A DNA stretch of 61,836 nucleotides from a virus. Its lineage: Duplodnaviria; Caudoviricetes. Under the pieces are notes generated by a model that had not been told where the DNA came from, searched no databases, and was given only the letters and a program-made list of their open reading frames with translations. The stretch covers positions 1 through 61,836 of IMG/VR virus record IMGVR_UViG_3300042386_001217; one strand, written 5' to 3'. Position 1 is the first letter of the stretch, and each line of letters begins with the position of its first letter. Below are positions 4,850-57,814 of this stretch, piece after piece. The translations under genes and the position numbers were made by a program.

Positions 4850-5572
4850 TTATCTATGTCCCAAATAATCGTTCAATTTTGTCATTAAGTCAAGTGATTT
4901 TCCTAATCCGCCATCAATTCTTGGTTCTTGTTTGTCTTTTTTATCTACATCAATATTTTCGTCATATAATTTTCTATCATCTTTGTTAGAGTAAAGATAT
5001 GCTCCAGGTGTAGACGGATTCATAACCAAGTCAAAACATATAATTTCAAAATCTTCTTGAACTTCGTTGTGTTCACCTTTTTTCGCCAAAGAACCAACAC
5101 CTCTCGAAGATATGCCCATAGTAACACCTTGTCTCATCAAGTTTGCTGCAATGTCACCTTTAGTAGAAACAACACCTCTTTCATGAAAACCTGGTGAAGT
5201 CAATAATCTTAACTTACCCATTAAAACATTATCGTCCCACCATACATCATCAATAATATGTGATACTCTGTCCAAATCAATTAAAGAAGATTCAGGGTGA
5301 TTTAATTCTGAAGTTGATAAACCTTTTTGAATTAATGATTTATATTTTTCAGCCTCTCTTCTTAATATTTTTTCAGGGTAAACTCTTCCGTTTCTATTTG
5401 GTACCCCATACTTTTGTAAAGTTGCGTAAAACACAAAAGGTTTTGAATGGTCTATTTGGGTTTTATTAATTTGTGCAAAATTCTCGTTTAAAGAATCTTT
5501 CCAAGAAATACTACCCGCATCATATTCAATTAATATACCTTTACCAGTTTCGTTTGGTCCTAAAATTTTCAT
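4850..5572 (-). CDS. Prohead core protease (T4 gp21-like)
   Basis: NRNGRVYP, ELNHP, GISSRGVGS, FDLVMNPSTPGA motifs. Confidence 0.95.
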   Translation of the reverse strand: MKILGPNETGKGILIEYDAGSISWKDSLNENFAQINKTQIDHSKPFVFYATLQKYGVPNRNGRVYPEKILRREAEKYKSLIQKGLSTSELNHPESSLIDLDRVSHIIDDVWWDDNVLMGKLRLLTSPGFHERGVVSTKGDIAANLMRQGVTMGISSRGVGSLAKKGEHNEVQEDFEIICFDLVMNPSTPGAYLYSNKDDRKLYDENIDVDKKDKQEPRIDGGLGKSLDLMTKLNDYLGHR

Positions 5573-47145: not shown

Positions 47146-47841
47146 ATGAAAATTACTTTCATTAGTGACACGCACACCAAACACAAAAAAGTAACTAGTT
47201 TGTTACCTGGTGGTGATTTGTTAATTCACGCTGGCGATTTAAGTTCTATGGGTTACCAACATGAAATCGTACAGTTCCTAAAATGGTTCAATGGTTTGGA
47301 TAACTACACACATAAAGTTTTTATCGCTGGTAATCATGATTTTGGATTTCAAGATATTCCTGACGTTTGTAAAAAGTTTTTAGATATTTATGACGAAGTA
47401 ACTTATCTTCAAGACAATTTACATTTGATTGGCGAAGACTATCAAACCGCAGTAAAAGTTTATGGTGCCCCATGGCAACCTGAATTTCATAATTGGGCGT
47501 TCAACTTACCAAGACAAGGTAAAGAGTTAGAAGATGTTTGGAACAATATCCCTATGGATACCGACATTCTTGTAACACACGGACCCGCTTGGGGACATTT
47601 GGATACTGTTAAATTTAATCCGACTTTTAATCTTGGTTGTGAATTACTAGCCGAAAGAATCAAAGTTGTAAAACCAAAGATTCACGTTTGTGGACACATC
47701 CACACTGGATATGGATATAAATTTGATGGTGACACACACTACTTCAACGCTGCGGTTTTGGATGAAAGTTACAACTTCACCCAAAAACCTTTGACTGTTG
47801 AGTGGAACAAAGAAACTAACGAAATCGAGTTTTTAGACTAA
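47146..47841 (+). CDS. Metallophosphoesterase (MPPED-like)
   Basis: ISDTH, HAGD, AGNHD, THGP, CGHIH. Confidence 0.92.
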   Translation: MKITFISDTHTKHKKVTSLLPGGDLLIHAGDLSSMGYQHEIVQFLKWFNGLDNYTHKVFIAGNHDFGFQDIPDVCKKFLDIYDEVTYLQDNLHLIGEDYQTAVKVYGAPWQPEFHNWAFNLPRQGKELEDVWNNIPMDTDILVTHGPAWGHLDTVKFNPTFNLGCELLAERIKVVKPKIHVCGHIHTGYGYKFDGDTHYFNAAVLDESYNFTQKPLTVEWNKETNEIEFLD

Positions 47842-47842
47842 T

Positions 47843-48415
47843 ATGAAAAAAGAATATAACGAGTGGTATTGGAAACTATACAGATGGTTTAAGTGGGATG
47901 CCAAACATCTTCATCGTGATATTGCTCAGGGTTTTAGAAACTTATGGAAATGGTTCCCAATCATTTGGAAAGACCGTGATTGGGATGACCATTTTATTTT
48001 TGAAGTTCTGAAATTTAAAATCAAGAATACTGCTAACTATACCGAAAAAAAACAAAGGTTTGTTGGATGGGAAAACGAAGTTCGATATATGAGAATATGT
48101 GAAACATTAATTGATAGAATTCAAAATGAATATTATCAAAGTGAACATTTTGATTATTATGATTTTGACATGAATTTTGTTCCGACAAAAAATGACCTGT
48201 ATGAAGCTGTGTTTGACGTTAAACGTGACGATACTGACCAATACATTAAAAAATACCCACACGCATTAAGAAGAGCCAAAAAGGACCCAAGATTTAAAAA
48301 TTATTTTAGTGGTGAAAGAAATGGTTATATCGCGGTAGGTATTATTAGACACGAGAAAGCAAAAAAACTACTATTTAAAATTCTTGAACAAAGAATTGAA
48401 CATTGGTGGGATTAA
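47843..48415 (+). CDS. Hypothetical phage protein
   Basis: W.PIIWKDRDWD motif; ends WWD. Confidence 0.8.
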   Translation: MKKEYNEWYWKLYRWFKWDAKHLHRDIAQGFRNLWKWFPIIWKDRDWDDHFIFEVLKFKIKNTANYTEKKQRFVGWENEVRYMRICETLIDRIQNEYYQSEHFDYYDFDMNFVPTKNDLYEAVFDVKRDDTDQYIKKYPHALRRAKKDPRFKNYFSGERNGYIAVGIIRHEKAKKLLFKILEQRIEHWWD

Positions 48416-48431
48416 AAATATTGACAAAGAT

Positions 48432-48893
48432 ATGGAAAAAGTAAAAATATACCTTGACGACGTAAGGACACCAATTAAAAATGATTGGATTGTCGTTAGA
48501 AACTATGATGAGTTCGTAGATAAAGTTGAAGAAGTTGGAATTGAAAACATTGATGCGATTTCTTTTGACCACGATTTGGGTGATACCGCAATGAAAGAAT
48601 ACTTTGATAATGTATCCCCCAACTATACATTAAACTATGACAACATTCATGAAAAAACAGGATATGATTGTGCAAAGTGGTTGGTTAACCATTTCTACAA
48701 TAAAAATCCTGAAGCAACAACAAAACATAGAATGTTTCGTGGAACAAAGATTGAATTTCCAAATGTATATGTTCATTCGGCAAATCCAATTGGAGCTTCA
48801 AACATTATGGGTTACATTAATAACTTCTTAATGAACGAAGCTCAACCACAAACCTGTGTTCGGGTTTCAATACCACACACTGTTGATGAGTAA
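48432..48893 (+). CDS. Cyclic-phosphate-processing receiver-like domain protein
   Basis: YLDDVRTP, ISFDHDLG, TGYDCAKWL, VHSANP.G. Confidence 0.82.
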   Translation: MEKVKIYLDDVRTPIKNDWIVVRNYDEFVDKVEEVGIENIDAISFDHDLGDTAMKEYFDNVSPNYTLNYDNIHEKTGYDCAKWLVNHFYNKNPEATTKHRMFRGTKIEFPNVYVHSANPIGASNIMGYINNFLMNEAQPQTCVRVSIPHTVDE

Positions 48894-48921: not shown

Positions 48922-48942
48922 ATGTCGTTTATATTTATTGTT

Positions 48943-49641
48943 ATGAAAAAATCAAAATTGTCTTTGAATGAAGAACTAAAAACTATAAGAAGACTTTCAG
49001 GGTTAAATGAAGGTTTGGTCGATGATATCGTAGATAAACTAAAATCATTTGGTGGTTCTGTGGTTGATAAATTTGAAGATTACATTGACAGTGATTCTGA
49101 AGATAATAAAGAAGAAAAAAAAGATGGTGAAAAGTCTATGGTTGACAAGATTAAGAATTTCTTTTCCGATAATGAGGAAATTGAGACTAAAGTTGAGAAA
49201 ATTGTTTGGCCAACATGTAACTCTGATAGTAAAATCACAAGTGATTTTGATGAGATGAGAGGTTCTGAACAACACAAAGGTGTTGATATCAATGTAAATT
49301 CAGGGACAAAAATTGTTAGTCCTTTTGATGGTAAGGTTGAAGTCGCATCGTTTACCAACGACAGATGTGGTGGTATGATACAAATAAAACAGGTTGACTC
49401 AATAACAAAAGAAAAGACAAGTATGTCTGCGAAATTCTGTCATATGAAACAAATTGATGTTTCAGTGGGAGATACTGTAATGGCTGGTGAAGTAGTTGGA
49501 TTATCAGGGGGAGGTGCAAGTGATAAAGGTGCTGGAAATTCAAAAGGAGCTCACTTACATTTTGAACTTTTAGACGGGAATAGACATGTTAACCCTGAAA
49601 AAACAATAAAAGACAAAAAATTTTGTCCAAAACCAAATTAA
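48943..49641 (+). CDS. M23 family peptidase
   Basis: HKGVDI, FCHM, HLHFE, VNP; ATG 48943 follows TATTTAT. Confidence 0.9.
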   Translation: MKKSKLSLNEELKTIRRLSGLNEGLVDDIVDKLKSFGGSVVDKFEDYIDSDSEDNKEEKKDGEKSMVDKIKNFFSDNEEIETKVEKIVWPTCNSDSKITSDFDEMRGSEQHKGVDINVNSGTKIVSPFDGKVEVASFTNDRCGGMIQIKQVDSITKEKTSMSAKFCHMKQIDVSVGDTVMAGEVVGLSGGGASDKGAGNSKGAHLHFELLDGNRHVNPEKTIKDKKFCPKPN

Positions 49642-49643
49642 TT

Positions 49644-49674
49644 TTTGACTTTTAAAAAAACTTTTGTAACTTTG
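49644..49674 (+). promoter_or_regulatory. Bacteroidetes-type promoter of tRNA operon 1
   Basis: TTTG (49644) - 19 nt - TAACTTTG (49667). Confidence 0.75.
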
Positions 49675-49700
49675 TACCATATTTAATAGAAAACAAAACA

Positions 49701-49796
49701 ATGACACTCGTAAACAAACATATTGTGAAACAATTTATTCAATTCTGTCAGAATTGGTATGTTCGCACATATGCAAGTTCGGGTGACCTAGGTTAA
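49701..49796 (+). CDS. Putative attenuator leader peptide 1 (MTLVNKHIVKQFIQFCQNWYVRTYASSGDLG)
   Basis: 31-codon ORF between promoter and terminator; contains all ten amino acids of the downstream tRNAs; its 3' part overlaps the antiterminator strand. Confidence 0.8.
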   Translation: MTLVNKHIVKQFIQFCQNWYVRTYASSGDLG

Positions 49797-49856
49797 TAAA
49801 AAACAGCCTAAGATAAACAACCAACCCGAACTCACAAGGTTCGGGTTTTTTGTTTT
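49776..49856 (+). promoter_or_regulatory. Antiterminator/terminator pair (attenuator 1)
   Basis: Terminator AACCCGAAC(49823)-loop-GTTCGGGTT plus U-tract; competing AGTTCGGGT (49776-49784) pairs with ACCCGAACT (49824-49832). Confidence 0.8.
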
Positions 49857-49857
49857 A

Positions 49858-49869
49858 GTTCTTTGACAT
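49858..49869 (+). promoter_or_regulatory. boxA-like antitermination site
   Basis: GTTCTTTGACAT, identical at 51995 and 57803. Confidence 0.65.
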
Positions 49870-49884
49870 ATTGGTAACCAAAAT

Positions 49885-49957
49885 GGACAGGTAGCTCAGG
49901 TGGTAGAGCACTGGACTGAAAATCCAGGTGTCGCGGGTTCAACTCCCGCCCTGTCCA
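49885..49957 (+). tRNA. tRNA-Phe(GAA)
   Basis: CTGGA-CT-GAA-AA-TCCAG. Confidence 0.95.
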
Positions 49958-49966
49958 CAAATACAT

Positions 49967-50043
49967 TGGTGATTAGCTCAGTTGGTTAGAGCACTACGCT
50001 GATACCGTAGGGGTCACAGGTTCAAGTCCTGTATCACCAACCA
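49967..50043 (+). tRNA. tRNA-Ile(GAT)
   Basis: CTACG-CT-GAT-AC-CGTAG; CCA encoded. Confidence 0.93.
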
Positions 50044-50048
50044 TAAAT

Positions 50049-50119
50049 TACCCTTTCGTCTAATGGCAGGACAAGTGGTTTTGGTCCACTGAATGGAGGT
50101 TCGAGTCCTTCAGGGGTAA
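50049..50119 (+). tRNA. tRNA-Gln(TTG)
   Basis: AGTGG-TT-TTG-GT-CCACT. Confidence 0.92.
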
Positions 50120-50125
50120 CAATAT

Positions 50126-50200
50126 GACCTTATAGCTCAATTGGCTTAGAGCACTACACTTTTAATGTAGGGGTTTCGGGTTCGAGTCCCGATGGGGTCA
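50126..50200 (+). tRNA. tRNA-Lys(TTT)
   Basis: CTACA-CT-TTT-AA-TGTAG. Confidence 0.94.
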
Positions 50201-50202
50201 CA

Positions 50203-50327
50203 AAGGTTGATTGGGGAATCCCACAATGTTAACGTGTCGGTAGTTCGTTGTTGTGGGGGAGTTTGAACTGTCATAGTAATGCCAATCGTAAAAGGAGTCG
50301 TCCACTGAACCATCTTCTCTTTACCTT
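50203..50327 (+). ncRNA. Putative structured RNA between tRNAs
   Basis: Closing stem AAGGT..GGGGAA / TTCTCT..ACCTT; inner CCCACAAT/GTTGTGGG; GC-rich, no credible ORF. Confidence 0.4.
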
Positions 50328-50331
50328 ATTT

Positions 50332-50403
50332 AGTTCCTTAGCTCAGCGGGAGAGCACTTGGCTTACATCCAAGGAGTCGTTGGTTCGAATCCAACAGGAA
50401 CTA
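50332..50403 (+). tRNA. tRNA-Val(TAC)
   Basis: CTTGG-CT-TAC-AT-CCAAG. Confidence 0.93.
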
Positions 50404-50466
50404 CGGAGTTTCCCCACACTTCCACATGGCAGTCGGTCCGTTAATCCGATGAAGTGGGGAATATTT

Positions 50467-50548
50467 GCCAGTATCGCATAGCGGCAATTGCACTTGACTG
50501 TAAATCAAGCCTCTTTTGAGTTCGTAGGTTCGAGTCCTACTGCTGGCA
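50467..50548 (+). tRNA. tRNA-Tyr(GTA)
   Basis: CTTGA-CT-GTA-AA-TCAAG; long variable arm. Confidence 0.93.
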
Positions 50549-50558
50549 CAAAATATAA

Positions 50559-50632
50559 GTCCATATGCCTGAGTGGTTCAAAGGGGCGGTCTGCAAAACC
50601 GTTATTCGTTGGTTCAAATCCAACTGTGGACT
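50559..50632 (+). tRNA. tRNA-Cys(GCA)
   Basis: GCGGT-CT-GCA-AA-ACCGT; U73. Confidence 0.92.
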
Positions 50633-50642
50633 CAAAATACAT

Positions 50643-50715
50643 GGTGTCTGTAGTTCAGAGGAAGAACACTTGGTTGTGGTCCAAGATGTCGTGGGTTCGA
50701 TTCCCATCAGTCACC
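50643..50715 (+). tRNA. tRNA-His(GTG)
   Basis: CTTGG-TT-GTG-GT-CCAAG; G-1:C73. Confidence 0.92.
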
Positions 50716-50722
50716 CAAAATT

Positions 50723-50794
50723 GGTTCTTTAGTTCAATGGACAGAACATGTGGCTACGGACTACAAAATGAGGGTTCGAGTCCTTCAGGAACCA
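50723..50794 (+). tRNA. tRNA-Arg(ACG)
   Basis: TGTGG-CT-ACG-GA-CTACA. Confidence 0.92.
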
Positions 50795-50802
50795 CATTAT
50801 AC

Positions 50803-50873
50803 AGGCCAGTAGTGAAAGGGTATCACCACAGTCTCCAAAACTGTTATTGGCGGTTCGAATCCGTCCTGGTCTG
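50803..50873 (+). tRNA. tRNA-Trp(CCA)
   Basis: ACAGT-CT-CCA-AA-ACTGT; G73. Confidence 0.92.
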
Positions 50874-50919
50874 CAAAACAATTTTTGGTATTGTCAAGTT
50901 TTTTCTTTAACTTTGTAGT

Positions 50920-51462
50920 ATGGAAAAAGAAATAATATCTGAAATGGTTGATGATATGATTAATAGTTTTGGACTTTTCCAATCTGAAAACGAGAATTTC
51001 AAAACTACATTCAGTTATGAATTTTTGGGATATTGGAACAATAAATTAAGTATTGCTTTAGTTACTGAAGTTGACTGTATGGAAGTTTATCGTAATAACG
51101 ATAATGTACCTGAATTTCAGTACATTAGACGTAAAATAGACAAGGATATCAAAACCATCGAGAAATATGGTATTGTAGATAATCACCCATACACTCACAC
51201 ACACTTAATAAGAAAAAATTTTGAATTTTGGAAAAATACTGAATTGAAAAAATTGAAAAAAAGGGTTAAAGAACGTTTTGGTAAATATGTTCACGCAATC
51301 AGAGTAGATTTTGATAGTAACTATACTTTGTTTCCACGACTCAAAGTAATATTCAGTAGAGAATATTCAAATTGGGGTAATACGAGATATGACGCAATTA
51401 GAGAAATTCAAAATTTAATGTCTGAACTTGGATTCTCTAAACAGATAAGACTTAATTGGTAA
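50920..51462 (+). CDS. Hypothetical protein
   Basis: 180 aa after TAACTTTG. Confidence 0.75.
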   Translation: MEKEIISEMVDDMINSFGLFQSENENFKTTFSYEFLGYWNNKLSIALVTEVDCMEVYRNNDNVPEFQYIRRKIDKDIKTIEKYGIVDNHPYTHTHLIRKNFEFWKNTELKKLKKRVKERFGKYVHAIRVDFDSNYTLFPRLKVIFSREYSNWGNTRYDAIREIQNLMSELGFSKQIRLNW

Positions 51463-51975: not shown

Positions 51976-52017
51976 TACTTTCTACCTTTGTAAGGTTCTT
52001 TGACATCTTGAAATAAT

Positions 52018-52102
52018 ACCGAAGTGGCGTAAAGGTAGCCGCGTTAGTCTTAGGAACTAATGTCTTCGTGACGTGTGGGTTCGATTCCCACCTTCGGTAC
52101 CA
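52018..52102 (+). tRNA. tRNA-Leu(TAG)
   Basis: TTAGT-CT-TAG-GA-ACTAA; long variable arm; CCA encoded. Confidence 0.93.
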
Positions 52103-52105
52103 AAT

Positions 52106-52186
52106 ATCAGTGTGGTGTAACGGTAGCCACGGTTGTCTCAAAAGCAACTCCCTCACGGGGTGTAGGTTCGATTCCTACCACTGATA
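52106..52186 (+). tRNA. tRNA-Leu(CAA)
   Basis: GTTGT-CT-CAA-AA-GCAAC; long variable arm. Confidence 0.9.
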
Positions 52187-52191
52187 CAAAT

Positions 52192-52273
52192 TGGCAGGTA
52201 GCCTAGAGGCCAGGCAGCAGACTGTTAATCTGCGACTTAAATGTCTACGTGGGTTCGATTCCCACCCTGTCAG
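52192..52273 (+). tRNA. tRNA-Asn(GTT), atypical (long variable arm, G3:U70)
   Basis: GCAGA-CT-GTT-AA-TCTGC; variable GAC-TTAAAT-GTC-TAC; acceptor TGGCAGG/CCTGTCA-G. Confidence 0.85.
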
Positions 52274-52372
52274 CAACGTGAGACTAAGACACAGAAACAA
52301 TATCAGGTCAGTGGAGGGGAAACCCGTAGAAGCGTTTTAACACTTGATAAGTAACGGATACCTCACCATTTT

Positions 52373-52831: not shown

Positions 52832-52924
52832 AGTCAGGTGGCGGAATGGTAGACGCTCGCTTCAAGGTGCGGATAGTCAACGAAATGTAAAGCTAACGTA
52901 CAGGTTCGAATCCTGTCCTGACTA
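52832..52924 (+). ncRNA. tRNA-like repeat copy 1
   Basis: AGTCAGG TGGCGGAATGGTAGACGC ... ACAGGTTCGAATCCTGT CCTGACT A. Confidence 0.75.
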
Positions 52925-53002
52925 CGAATGTTCAATAGTGGTAATTACGGGTCCGCCTCCTTGCCTGGAAATATACACTGGACAAATTAAGGGAGGCAAC
53001 AT

Positions 53003-57753: not shown

Positions 57754-57814
57754 TTTGTTTTTATCAAAAAAAAGTAGTAACTTTGTATCATAGTTGAGAA
57801 TGGTTCTTTGACAT
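57754..57814 (+). promoter_or_regulatory. Bacteroidetes-type promoter and boxA-like site
   Basis: TTTG (57754) - 20 nt - TAACTTTG (57778); GTTCTTTGACAT (57803). Confidence 0.65.

Follow-up and report, generated by a model that had tools for sequence, protein, structure and literature searches.

A short phage ORF whose codons mirror the tRNA genes downstream of it probably forms part of a ribosome-mediated leader-peptide transcription attenuator, which would connect a Bacteroidota-type promoter to a phage tRNA operon and sense the operon's own tRNA supply. The element lies in IMGVR_UViG_3300042386_001217 (Caudoviricetes), whose whole 61,836-nt stretch we refer to as the window. By computation, we found its parts, a geometry conserved across leader families, covarying stems, and a codon match specific for one reading frame and for the adjoining array. 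An earlier note on this DNA had listed a promoter, an ORF, a terminator, a boxA-like site, and ten tRNAs and had read them as an attenuator; all of these parts are present where it placed them (Table 1), and its attenuator interpretation is supported by the results described below.

Table 1. Positions, within the window, of the leader element and the neighboring tRNA genes
Feature	Position	Strand	Description
Promoter P1	49644-49674	+	-33 TTTG at 49644-49647, 19-nt spacer, -7 TAACTTTG at 49667-49674
Leader ORF	49701-49796	+	ATG start, 31 codons, MTLVNKHIVKQFIQFCQNWYVRTYASSGDLG, stop TAA at 49794-49796
Sensor zone (codons 4-22)	49710-49766	+	17 of 19 codons correspond to the array's ten tRNAs
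CATATT motif	49719-49724	+	about 18 nt after the leader ATG; conserved
Region 2 (antiterminator 5' strand), AGTTCGGGT	49776-49784	+	complementary to the terminator 5' arm
Small hairpin TAGGTT/AGCCTA	49789-49794/49806-49811	+	spans the stop codon; in minimum-energy and centroid folds
Intrinsic terminator	49823-49856	+	5' arm 49823-49832, loop 49833-49837, 3' arm 49838-49847, T tract
boxA-like 12-mer, GTTCTTTGACAT	49858-49869	+	15 nt 5' of the first tRNA
Ten-tRNA array	49885-50874	+	ARAGORN; Rfam tRNA matches of 54-74 bits
Next tRNA cluster	52018-52274	+	Leu-TAG, Leu-CAA, Asn-GTT; own promoter and boxA-like site

The elements of P1 fit the Bacteroidota -33/-7 promoter consensus, TTTG/TANNTTTG with G numbered -5, as given in PMC6847099, and transcription is predicted to start near position 49679. 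The leader ORF lacks a Shine-Dalgarno sequence and the region upstream of it is A-rich, a start context also described for Bacteroidota in PMC6847099. The same holds more widely: among 44 leaders, a Shine-Dalgarno-like 4-mer occurs once, A is found at -1 in 32, and the second codon is AAA in 23. Of the 24 family representatives in the discovery set below, 14 have a TAnnTTTG box 5' of the leader. Further downstream in the window, region 2 ends 9 nt before the leader stop codon, the small hairpin at 49789-49811 is compatible with both conformers of the switch, and the terminator consists of a 10-bp stem (49823-49847) and its T tract. The array that follows encodes, in order, Phe-GAA, Ile-GAT, Gln-TTG, Lys-TTT, Val-TAC, Tyr-GTA, Cys-GCA, His-GTG, Arg-ACG, and Trp-CCA. 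No terminator-like sites were found on the plus strand between 49857 and 51200, and the next cluster, at 52018-52274, may also be reached by read-through from the ten-tRNA array. The spacers around tRNA-Val (50202-50331 and 50405-50466) fold no better than shuffled sequences.

We propose that these parts work as follows, using leader-peptide attenuation in the sense summarized in PMC3082878. RNA polymerase would start near 49679, and a ribosome would translate the 31-codon leader. With all the needed tRNAs present and charged, the ribosome would reach the stop codon and cover AGTTCGGGT; the terminator hairpin would then form, and transcription would end before the tRNA genes. Were any one of the sensed tRNAs scarce, the ribosome would stall within codons 4-22 and leave AGTTCGGGT free to pair with the terminator 5' arm, and the polymerase would read through, pass the boxA-like site, and transcribe the array. 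Such an operon would be under autogenous feedback, its products shutting it off by way of leader translation. We infer that a stalled ribosome leads to more read-through and that the signal in nature is the supply of tRNA, falling by cleavage or depletion.

The leader in the window matches its own tRNAs beyond chance. As the earlier note had observed, 17 of the 19 residues at codons 4-22 belong to the set of ten amino acids served by the array, all ten amino acids are present, and both nonmatching residues are Asn, for which the next cluster carries a tRNA. These ten amino acids make up 41.9% of the residues in the long ORFs of this phage fragment. When 200,000 random 30-residue windows were drawn from this phage's proteins, none contained a 19-residue stretch with at least 17 residues in the set, and 1,374 contained all ten amino acids. 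Among 318 ATG ORFs of 20-60 codons in the six frames, only one has both properties, and it is the leader. A test of the whole leader, which is less post hoc, is weaker: 18 of its 30 residues are in the set (P = 0.056, marginal taken alone), and its coverage of the array amino acids is 10 of 10 (P = 0.0066). The leader's Asn codons match the tRNA-Asn of the 52018-52274 cluster. Since tRNA-Leu and tRNA-Asn directly extend the same array in three close relatives (L007, L008, and L009), the two apparent exceptions fit. The same cluster probably serves the leader's Leu codons, CTC and CTA; a strict wobble rule lets Leu-TAG read only CTA directly.

The same layout of promoter, 21-47-codon ORF, antiterminator/terminator, boxA-like 12-mer, and tRNA array recurs in many contigs of uncultured phages. 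A scan with the window's own stems returned at least 17 viral loci, all with a promoter, a short ORF, a terminator, and a tRNA; scans anchored on the T tract and boxA returned many more loci, with differing stems and leaders. All elements analyzed here were found through the same anchors, namely GGGTTTTT, a boxA-like motif, and a tRNA no more than 60 nt away. The discovery set comprised 46 sites, from which two were dropped for weak stems and two because the ORF stayed open more than 60 codons upstream, leaving 42 elements in 24 leader families. For replication, 240 other loci yielded 74 sites, of which six were dropped and 68 kept; 29 of these elements have leaders less than 50% identical to every discovery element and form 20 further families. 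The total is at least 44 leader families, with less than 50% identity between families. Every site that passed the stem filter has an ATG ORF of at least 15 codons ending 20-48 nt 5' of the terminator, and no site in either set was dropped for want of an ORF.

Searches with flanking proteins (an M23 peptidase and a 180-aa ORF) found no relatives in viral contigs. By blastn, the window region matched isolate phages over tRNA genes only, and leaders L233, L229, and L150 had no match among isolate phages. The nearest isolates by major capsid protein include Flavobacterium phage immuto (41.6% identity); GTTCTTTGAYAT is absent from its genome, and no cultured carrier was found.

The earlier note had proposed that leader content should track tRNA content in related phages, and the result is strongly positive in the 24 discovery and 20 replication families alike. 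We counted the leader residues whose amino acid is served by the tRNA set downstream and compared them with 20,000 shuffles of arrays among leaders; the extent of the transcription unit was assumed from the gaps between tRNA genes (the inter-tRNA distance), and coverage is the number of array amino acids present in the array's own leader. In the discovery families, in-set residues numbered 151 against 100 in shuffles with gaps of up to 100 nt (z = 5.5; coverage 59/60), 228 against 148 with gaps of up to 200 nt (z = 6.9; 94/95), 239 against 155 at 400 nt (z = 7.2; 100/101), 347 against 244 at 800 nt (z = 8.1; 160/166), 394 of 704 against 280 ± 13 at 1300 nt (z = 8.6; 179/186), and 430 against 335 with no gap limit (z = 7.2; 201/223). 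At every gap definition, 0 of 20,000 shuffles reached the observed match. The residues outside the set were 310 of 704 at the 1300-nt limit. The match is confined to the ORF frame, with z = 8.7 there and -1.6 to +0.3 in the other five frames. In the replication families, z was 4.5-5.5 in the ORF frame (0/5,000 shuffles) and -0.9 to 0 in the other two forward frames, with coverage of 61/62, 71/73, and 97/104. When families were merged into 14 super-groups, the match still gave z = 6.4-7.7.

The match is not an effect of phage-wide composition. The in-set fraction is 0.58 in leaders and 0.41 in the long ORFs of the same loci, compared in 20 of the 24 family representatives, as four had too little long-ORF sequence and were left out. 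More of the distinct anticodons in an array also have a codon in the array's own leader that they can read directly than in shuffles (108 of 116 versus 76.2 ± 5.2 with gaps of up to 400 nt; 190 of 211 versus 138.1 ± 6.6 with gaps of up to 1300 nt). Split codon families track the isoacceptor in the array for Leu in 35 of 42 cases and for Ser in 16 of 27; for Arg, AGA codons accompany Arg-TCT arrays and CGY codons accompany Arg-ACG. In L010, the array ends in tRNA-Met and the leader has two internal Met codons at places where its relatives have Ile, Phe, or Val. Counting against the match, L017 retains a family-A leader above an array of only Phe, Ile, Gln, and then Glu. Three amino acids, Ile, Met, and Arg, are no commoner in leaders whose array has their tRNA, and codon order bears no relation to tRNA order (mean rho 0.12, p = 0.15). 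Each tRNA has one to four leader codons, not runs like those of the trp or his leaders, and the leaders of L222 and L235 cover up to 17 amino acids.

The same switch could have amino-acid starvation, acting through tRNA charging, as its natural signal, in which case the leader would report on host nutrition and the match to the tRNAs would be a side effect. Classical attenuators do respond to charged-tRNA levels, sequence cannot part charging from abundance, and the breadth of leaders such as those of L222 and L235 resembles a general probe of translation capacity. We nevertheless consider this unlikely, because extra tRNA gives no relief from an amino-acid shortage and because the match follows the array itself: sensor zones contain 1.41 codons per amino-acid type for tRNAs in the array, as opposed to 0.52 for tRNAs elsewhere in the locus (and 0.53 for types with no tRNA in the locus). 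The match also reaches the isoacceptor level (Arg, 13 of 16), and codon number scales with tRNA gene copies in the array, averaging 2.05, 3.0, 3.9, and 4.0 codons for one, two, three, and four copies (Spearman 0.30, p = 2e-7).

Pairing of AGTTCGGGT with the terminator 5' arm, which the earlier note had pointed out, has a computed energy of -15.5 kcal/mol, compared with -13.7 for the terminator hairpin, and the whole window leader folds better than 200 of 200 shuffles (z = -3.8). The note had further suggested that the stems would covary in relatives, and they do. Although stem sequences differ among families, each antiterminator matches its own terminator: own pairings average -15.5 kcal/mol against -10.6 ± 0.52 for swapped ones in the discovery families (z = -9.6, 0/20,000) and -15.3 against -10.4 kcal/mol in the replication families (z = -9.1). 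Thus, the antiterminator covaries with each family's terminator. A helix between the leader 5' half and region 2 (1:2) is present in the window's minimum-energy fold, where 49705-49710 pairs with 49780-49785; across families, this helix did not differ significantly from swapped pairings (-7.75 versus -7.2 kcal/mol, z = -1.5; 1,473 of 20,000 shuffles were equally good).

The trp/his-type geometry that had been proposed for the window, in the position of the stop, the antiterminator, and the sensor codons, turned out to be conserved across families. In every discovery family (24 of 24), the antiterminator strand ends at -18 to +3 nt relative to the stop codon; in the replication families the range is -31 to +16 nt, and 17 of 20 lie within -21 to +2. 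The stop codon lies 22-39 nt upstream of the terminator 5' arm. Across the 24 families, the in-set fraction of codons is 0.67 at 30-44 nt upstream of the antiterminator strand, rises to 0.78 (2.0 times swapped) at 15-29 nt, and is 0.52 at 0-14 nt; inside or after the strand it is 0.38 (0.94 times swapped), and the first four leader codons are likewise at 0.94 times swapped. Thus, matching codons concentrate at positions from which a ribosome, once stalled, would not cover the antiterminator strand.

This geometry bears on a reversed logic, in which full translation of the leader would be needed for read-through, the tRNA genes would be transcribed only in cells that translate well, and feedback would be positive. 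In its favor, the untranslated RNA folds with the terminator in the full-length minimum-energy structure of 22 of 24 families, so that some translation-dependent event must open it. At 22-39 nt from the 5' arm, however, a ribosome terminating at the stop codon would be too distant to melt the terminator, and it would cover the antiterminator strand, which favors termination. Together with the peak of matching codons at the place where stalling frees that strand, this makes the reversed logic very unlikely.

An independent micro-protein gene, with the ORF and terminator merely upstream of arrays that have their own promoters, would account for an ORF with a promoter on one side and a terminator on the other. 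The window does contain two other arrays that start straight from promoters without a leader, and a TAnnTTTG box lies between terminator and boxA in 4 of the 24 families; this second promoter-like box may free those four arrays in part from the switch. The -7 promoter box is absent between terminator and boxA in the other 20 families, the window's included, as expected of arrays that depend on read-through. The peptides are unconserved as proteins, with less than 50% identity between the 44 families, and yet their composition goes with the tRNA set downstream, in a single frame, and in every family the ORF has at its 3' end a sequence that can pair with the family's own terminator. We regard a stand-alone micro-protein gene as extremely unlikely.

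Alternatively, the leader RNA might act without translation, as a T-box-like or protein-bound switch in which tRNAs, or a factor, make direct contact with the codon-like triplets. T-box leaders do use a specifier codon and an antiterminator, and the CATATT motif is conserved whatever the reading frame: CATA[TC] occurs at ORF nucleotides 12-27 in 18 of the 24 families used for discovery and in 10 of the 20 used for replication, as opposed to 0-1 for two control windows, and its reading frame differs among leaders. Against such a switch, a cmscan search of 49300-51200 at E up to 1 matched no T-box or other riboswitch family and returned only tRNAs and a few hits below threshold. An uninterrupted ATG ORF of 21-47 codons at every site passing the stem filter, a single-frame signal over up to 17 amino acids, and a stop codon fixed in position relative to the switch are all expected for a ribosome and not for tRNA docking, and a translation-independent switch is hardly credible at all. 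One of the hits below threshold, Rfam Thr_leader (RF00506), scored 33 bits against a threshold of 55; it lies on the minus strand, covers the terminator hairpin only, and was rejected.

The boxA sequences of rRNA operon leaders and of the phage lambda nut sites direct processive antitermination. GTTCTTTGACAT also precedes two further arrays in the window, at 51995 and 57803, and in phage arrays the boxA-like site lies 4-32 nt 5' of the first tRNA. The same 12-mer also occurs upstream of 16S genes: among the bacterial matches listed, 6 of 120 loci carry it 167-209 nt upstream of a 16S gene. By simple tests, 111 of the 120 loci lack both a 16S gene and a tRNA downstream of the motif, and we take most of these to be chance matches or incompletely covered loci. 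From the sequence identity, we infer an rrn-type antitermination role for the phage site. In contrast to rrn leaders, however, the phage site adjoins the first tRNA, downstream of the attenuator terminator, and being 3' of that terminator it cannot be what overrides it. A 242-nt contig from a run labeled metatranscriptomic extends from the leader across the terminator and boxA into tRNA-Phe, with a single difference; it is a weak hint of an RNA, as low-depth contigs show no transcript ends and may be carried-over DNA.

The mechanism that we propose is well known from the leader-peptide attenuators of amino-acid operons such as trp, his, leu, thr, ilvGMEDA, and pheA. Like them, the phage element has a promoter-proximal short ORF with regulatory codons, an intrinsic terminator before the regulated genes, mutually exclusive 2:3 antiterminator and 3:4 terminator helices, and a stop codon at which a terminating ribosome would mask strand 2. 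Sensing of more than one amino acid also has precedents in thr (Thr and Ile) and ilv (Leu, Val, and Ile). The amino-acid operon attenuators regulate biosynthetic enzymes, whereas the genes downstream of the phage leader are tRNA genes, which neither make nor charge the sensed amino acids. Their leaders carry runs for one to three amino acids, whereas the phage leaders devote one to four codons to each of up to 17, in a set that is rewritten for each array. The phage elements also differ in their Bacteroidota-type promoters, in lacking a Shine-Dalgarno sequence, and in that a conserved 1:2 helix is not evident.

Two other systems come close. T-box leaders share the sensing of tRNA status and an antiterminator/terminator choice upstream of translation-related genes, but they bind one uncharged tRNA directly and without a ribosome, by means of their specifier loop and T-box sequence, whereas the phage signal is a single-frame ORF. 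The pheST operon has a leader-peptide attenuator, pheM, that resembles the phage element in the ribosome-mediated attenuation of a translation component by charged-tRNA supply; it is cellular, controls a synthetase, and senses one amino acid, whereas the phage element is viral. A Phe-rich leader of the E. coli tRNA-Phe gene pheV was considered as a precedent and rejected, as none is present in the 105 nt 5' of this gene in K-12. A search of the open literature, mostly at the level of titles and abstract openings, found no description of leader-peptide control of tRNA genes or arrays. Thus, the mechanism is known, and its target and logic appear to be new.

To our knowledge, the control of tRNA genes in phages is largely undescribed, and the reason for carrying such genes is debated. 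A leader that mirrors the tRNAs implies that these phages use translation to gauge how much tRNA is available and produce tRNAs only at need. On this reading, a classic mechanism of bacteria would act on regulated genes of a new class, with inputs far beyond those of any known attenuator, in a family that is large, with its 44 or more leader families. That leader content predicts array content provides a tractable rule, and leaders also indicate which tRNA genes share one transcription unit. The element is also relevant to work on tRNA-targeting antiphage defense. Possibly, although we put this forward tentatively and would not bet on it, the leaders are demand sensors with OR logic, in which a shortage of any of up to 17 tRNAs turns on the whole array as an inducible, self-limiting countermeasure, and the leader is rewritten codon by codon as tRNAs are gained and lost. 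The shortage would then come from host shut-off induced by the phage, from codon mismatch, or from host defense nucleases that cut or deplete tRNAs. If this OR-logic reading is true, the leaders would be a natural template for programmable multi-input translation sensors, and the tRNAs that a given phage treats as limiting could be read from its leader.

The window, a 61.8-kb viral contig with a CheckV-estimated completeness of 21%, carries genes that include those for a gp23-like major head protein, portal, and terminase. By capsid protein, its closest cultured relatives are a Microcystis phage and Flavobacterium phage immuto, which are distant (41-43% identity). The promoter, leader ORF, terminator, boxA-like site, and ten tRNA genes described in the earlier note were all found where it had placed them. 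As the promoter matches TTTG/TANNTTTG, the consensus described for Bacteroidota with its G numbered -5 (PMC6847099), transcription is predicted to start near 49679.

Features of the window around the leader and its tRNA arrays
Feature	Position	Remark
Calcineurin-like phosphoesterase gene	47146-47841	Upstream of leader region
Cyclic-phosphate-processing receiver domain protein (cREC_REC) gene	48384-48893	Upstream of leader region
M23-peptidase gene	48922-49641	5' flank of promoter/leader region
Promoter -33 TTTG	49644-49647	19-nt spacer to next box
Promoter -7 box TAACTTTG	49667-49674	Followed by A-rich stretch
Leader ATG ORF	49701-49796	31 codons
Terminator	49823-49856	G+C-rich 10-bp hairpin and T tract
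BoxA-like 12-mer GTTCTTTGACAT	49858-49869	Before first tRNA of the ten-gene array
tRNA array	49885-50874	Ten genes
12-mer GTTCTTTGACAT	51995-52006	Before first tRNA of second array
12-mer GTTCTTTGACAT	57803-57814	Before first tRNA of third array

Codons 4-22 of the leader, the sensor zone, read V N K H I V K Q F I Q F C Q N W Y V R. As the earlier note had proposed, 17 of these 19 specify amino acids of the ten downstream tRNAs, with all ten represented. The same ten amino acids make up 41.9% of residues in the fragment's long ORFs. Among 200,000 random 30-residue windows, none contained a 19-residue stretch with at least 17 residues in the set, and 1,374 contained all ten amino acids. The six frames contain 318 ATG ORFs of 20-60 codons, and the leader alone had both properties. 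A test of the whole leader, with no sub-window chosen, gave a weaker signal (P = 0.056 for count and 0.0066 for coverage). The 9-nt strand AGTTCGGGT (49776-49784) does pair with the 5' arm of the terminator, at -15.5 kcal/mol compared to -13.7 kcal/mol for the terminator hairpin, and the whole leader folded better than 200 of 200 shuffles (z = -3.8).

Neither flanking-protein searches nor a blastn comparison with isolate phages yielded useful relatives, and no cultured carrier of the element emerged from the isolate-phage comparisons. A pattern built on the window's stems matched at least 17 viral loci, all with a promoter, a terminator, a tRNA gene, and a short ORF whose 3' end adjoins the first stem copy; their leader peptides were of four unrelated types. 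Patterns combining a T tract with the 12-mer recovered many further elements, whose terminator stems and leaders differed considerably. We infer hosts solely from promoter and start-site features.

The discovery rules were blind to amino-acid content. A site consisted of GGGTTTTT, at most 40 nt, GTTCTTTGA, and then a tRNA within 60 nt; the terminator was the best stem ending in GGG, with at least six pairs, at least three of them G-C; the leader was the longest ATG ORF of at least 15 codons, no more than 170 nt upstream; and the array comprised same-strand tRNAs 3' of the motif, closed by the first gap above a threshold. Sampling used the boxA-like motif as its anchor, and element counts are those among the matches listed. 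From the 46 sites listed, we excluded two with weak stems (L061 and L217) and two whose frame was open for more than 60 codons upstream (L010 and L225). The remaining 42 elements, with leaders of 22-37 residues, formed 24 families at 50% leader identity, each represented by the member having the most downstream DNA.

The permutation test suggested in the earlier note was positive. At a gap threshold of 1300 nt, 394 of 704 leader residues in the 24 families fell within the amino-acid set of their own array, compared to 280 ± 13 after shuffling (z = 8.6). Across gap thresholds, z ranged from 5.5 to 8.6, and none of 20,000 array shuffles reached the observed value. Almost every array amino acid occurred in its own leader (94/95 at 200 nt, 100/101 at 400 nt, and 179/186 at 1300 nt). 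The match was confined to the ORF frame (z = 8.7), since the remaining five frames of the same nucleotides gave -1.6 to +0.3, indicating that the signal sits in the codons and not in base composition. Nor did the leaders mirror the proteins of their own loci. For the 20 of 24 family representatives with enough long-ORF sequence to serve as a control, the fraction of residues in the set was 0.58 in leaders and 0.41 in long ORFs, and coverage was 151 of 158, compared to 113 for random windows. When families were pooled into as few as 14 groups, on the basis of looser leader similarity or of array similarity, z was 6.4-7.7.

The correspondence extended to individual tRNAs. Across 44 families, the sensor zone contained 1.41 codons per amino-acid type for amino acids of the array, compared to 0.52 for those whose tRNA lay elsewhere in the locus and 0.53 for those with no tRNA in the locus. 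At the 400-nt threshold, 108 of 116 distinct anticodons had a directly readable codon in the leader (76 ± 5 after shuffling); several of the misses paired U34 tRNAs with pyrimidine-ending codons. In split codon families, the codons used agreed with the isoacceptor in the array for Arg (13/16), Leu (35/42), and Ser (16/27). Seventeen of the 20 amino acids were commoner in leaders whose array has their tRNA, with Glu at 1.83 compared to 0.08; in this per-amino-acid comparison, Ile, Met, and Arg were no more frequent. Codon number increased with tRNA gene copy number. Some attenuated arrays, in L233 (3042-5349) and L346 (357-3368), have more than one copy or isoacceptor for an amino acid (two for Asp, three for Glu, Val, and Leu, and four for Ala), and their leaders have correspondingly more codons for these amino acids.

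Individual loci illustrate how leaders and arrays change together. The array of L010, from the window's family, ends in an additional tRNA-Met, and the L010 leader contains two internal Met codons. In three further loci of this family (L007, L008, and L009), tRNAs for Leu and Asn are contiguous with the array and codons 4-22 all fall in the set. The leader of L233, whose array is Asp/Glu/Val/Leu/Ala/Trp, is rich in L, V, D, A, and E. A Ser/Thr/Leu/Arg-TCT/His/Pro array (L246) follows a leader containing LPLHSSLSSSTRRP, with Arg written AGA, and a Gly/Trp/Cys/Gln/Glu/Asp array (L012) follows a leader containing GFNGCDWQQE. One locus is a counter-example: L017 (968-1861) has a family-A leader near-identical to those of L007 and L008, with an array of Phe, Ile, Gln, and then Glu, and no further tRNA in 5 kb. 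The array seems to have lost genes by a recent deletion, leaving behind a leader that no longer matches. Separately, a 461-nt contig of a relative (run X2), compared to window positions 49737-50197, matches the leader end and terminator and then tRNA-Ile to tRNA-Lys, and 107 other letters replace the stretch from the boxA-like site to tRNA-Phe, suggesting exchange of the first tRNA among relatives.

We replicated the analysis with the same pipeline on 240 loci of metagenome and bacterial-genome collections, adding a filter that removed sites near contig ends. The pipeline identified 74 sites and retained 68 after discarding 6; of these, 29 leaders were less than 50% identical to all discovery elements and formed 20 new families. 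At three gap thresholds, the ORF frame gave z = 4.5, 5.0, and 5.5, and none of 5,000 shuffles was as high; the other two forward frames gave -0.9 to 0. Coverage was 61/62, 71/73, and 97/104. Leaders also paired with their own terminators at -15.3 kcal/mol, compared to -10.4 ± 0.53 kcal/mol when swapped (z = -9.1).

In all 24 discovery families, approximately the last 30 nt of the ORF contain a strand complementary to the 5' arm of their own terminator. Mean pairing energy was -15.5 kcal/mol, compared to -10.6 ± 0.52 kcal/mol for swapped terminators (0 of 20,000 as strong). Since the stems differ widely among families, this own-terminator pairing represents compensatory covariation, for which the earlier note had proposed a test. 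The strand ends between -18 and +3 nt relative to the first base of the stop codon, so that a ribosome at the stop codon would cover it, and as the stop codon lies 22-39 nt 5' of the terminator, the terminator would remain free to form. Full-length RNA folded into the terminator in 22 of 24 families, and RNA ending at the 5' arm mostly formed the antiterminator. Support for a conserved helix between the leader 5' half and the antiterminator strand was not above chance across families.

The placement of matching codons fits a ribosome footprint. The fraction of codons in the set was 0.78 at 15-29 nt upstream of the antiterminator strand, twice the swapped value, 0.67 at 30-44 nt, and 0.52 at 0-14 nt. 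Neither the codons inside or after the strand (0.38) nor the first four leader codons were enriched. Twenty of the 24 families, among them that of the window, have no -7 box between terminator and 12-mer, and their arrays therefore depend on read-through; a box is present in the other four.

The 12-mer lies 4-32 nt 5' of the first tRNA in arrays with and without a leader. The window arrays at 51995 and 57803 start directly from a TAnnTTTG box and have no leader; as the 12-mer at 51995 is only 4 nt after the TACCTTTG box, the predicted transcript would start at the motif. The 12-mer is identical to one located 167-209 nt 5' of the 16S gene in 6 of the 120 bacterial loci listed. Phage tRNA operons seem to have borrowed a host rRNA-type boxA, and the 12-mer presumably has a boxA-like function in these arrays.

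Other motifs recurred. Of the 24 discovery families, 18 have CATATT (CATA[TC]) ~18 nt past the leader ATG, as do 10 of the 20 replication families, compared to 0-1 in control windows; the motif is at 49719-49724 in the window and between nt 12 and 27 in leaders generally. As its reading frame varies (His-Ile, Asn-Ile, and Asp-Ile), the signal is at the level of RNA or DNA and not of the peptide, possibly a pause or processing site. A related string, ACATATTG, follows the boxA-like site at 49866-49873. In many families (L012, L110, L183, L191, L193, L220, L235, and others), a TATTTATAA-like motif 13-35 nt 5' of the ATG follows or replaces the TAnnTTTG box and may mark a class of promoters specific to phages or an initially transcribed element.

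Directly 3' of tRNA-Trp are TTTG (50884-50887), a 20-nt spacer, and TAACTTTG (50908-50915); with G at -5, the predicted start is the A of the ATG at 50920, which may give the 180-codon ORF at 50920-51462 a leaderless mRNA. At 52832-52925, ARAGORN called a 94-nt tRNA-like gene whose anticodon has four bases (caag) and whose variable arm is long; this may be a class II tRNA in which the anticodon loop is enlarged, or else Leu-CAA called wrongly. In L007, a tRNA with anticodon CTA (5291-5363, minus strand), designated Pyl by ARAGORN and in effect amber-suppressor-like, lies just 5' of the leader promoter, adjoining tRNA-Cys and outside the attenuated array. Calcineurin-like phosphoesterases and cREC_REC proteins are domain types linked to RNA-end repair, and the two genes upstream of the window's leader may be relevant to damaged tRNAs.

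The comparative tests proposed with the attenuator interpretation support it, and ribosome-mediated attenuation with the logic of trp and his leaders is the likely mechanism. When all array tRNAs are supplied, the ribosome would get to the stop codon and transcription would terminate. When any one is short, the ribosome would stall in the sensor zone, allowing the antiterminator to form and the array to be transcribed; the boxA-like site may afterwards render the polymerase resistant to termination. We infer the direction of control, the strength of a single-codon stall, and the natural trigger, which could be host tRNA depletion or cleavage, codon mismatch, or starvation. One contig, from a run labelled metatranscriptomic and possibly derived from DNA carry-over, spans the leader, terminator, 12-mer, and tRNA-Phe.

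In five tested features, the phage element agrees with the structural definition of leader-peptide attenuators. It does not belong to the T-boxes, and no other Rfam leader matched. Searches of openly accessible full texts turned up no account of leader peptides controlling tRNA genes or arrays. E. coli pheV, considered as a precedent with a Phe-rich leader, was ruled out by the sequence before pheV. Unlike the classical leader-peptide family, the phage element has tRNA genes as its targets. Our comparisons support the view that the mechanism would be a known one, and that its class of target, its far larger number of inputs, and the customization of the leader to each operon would be new.
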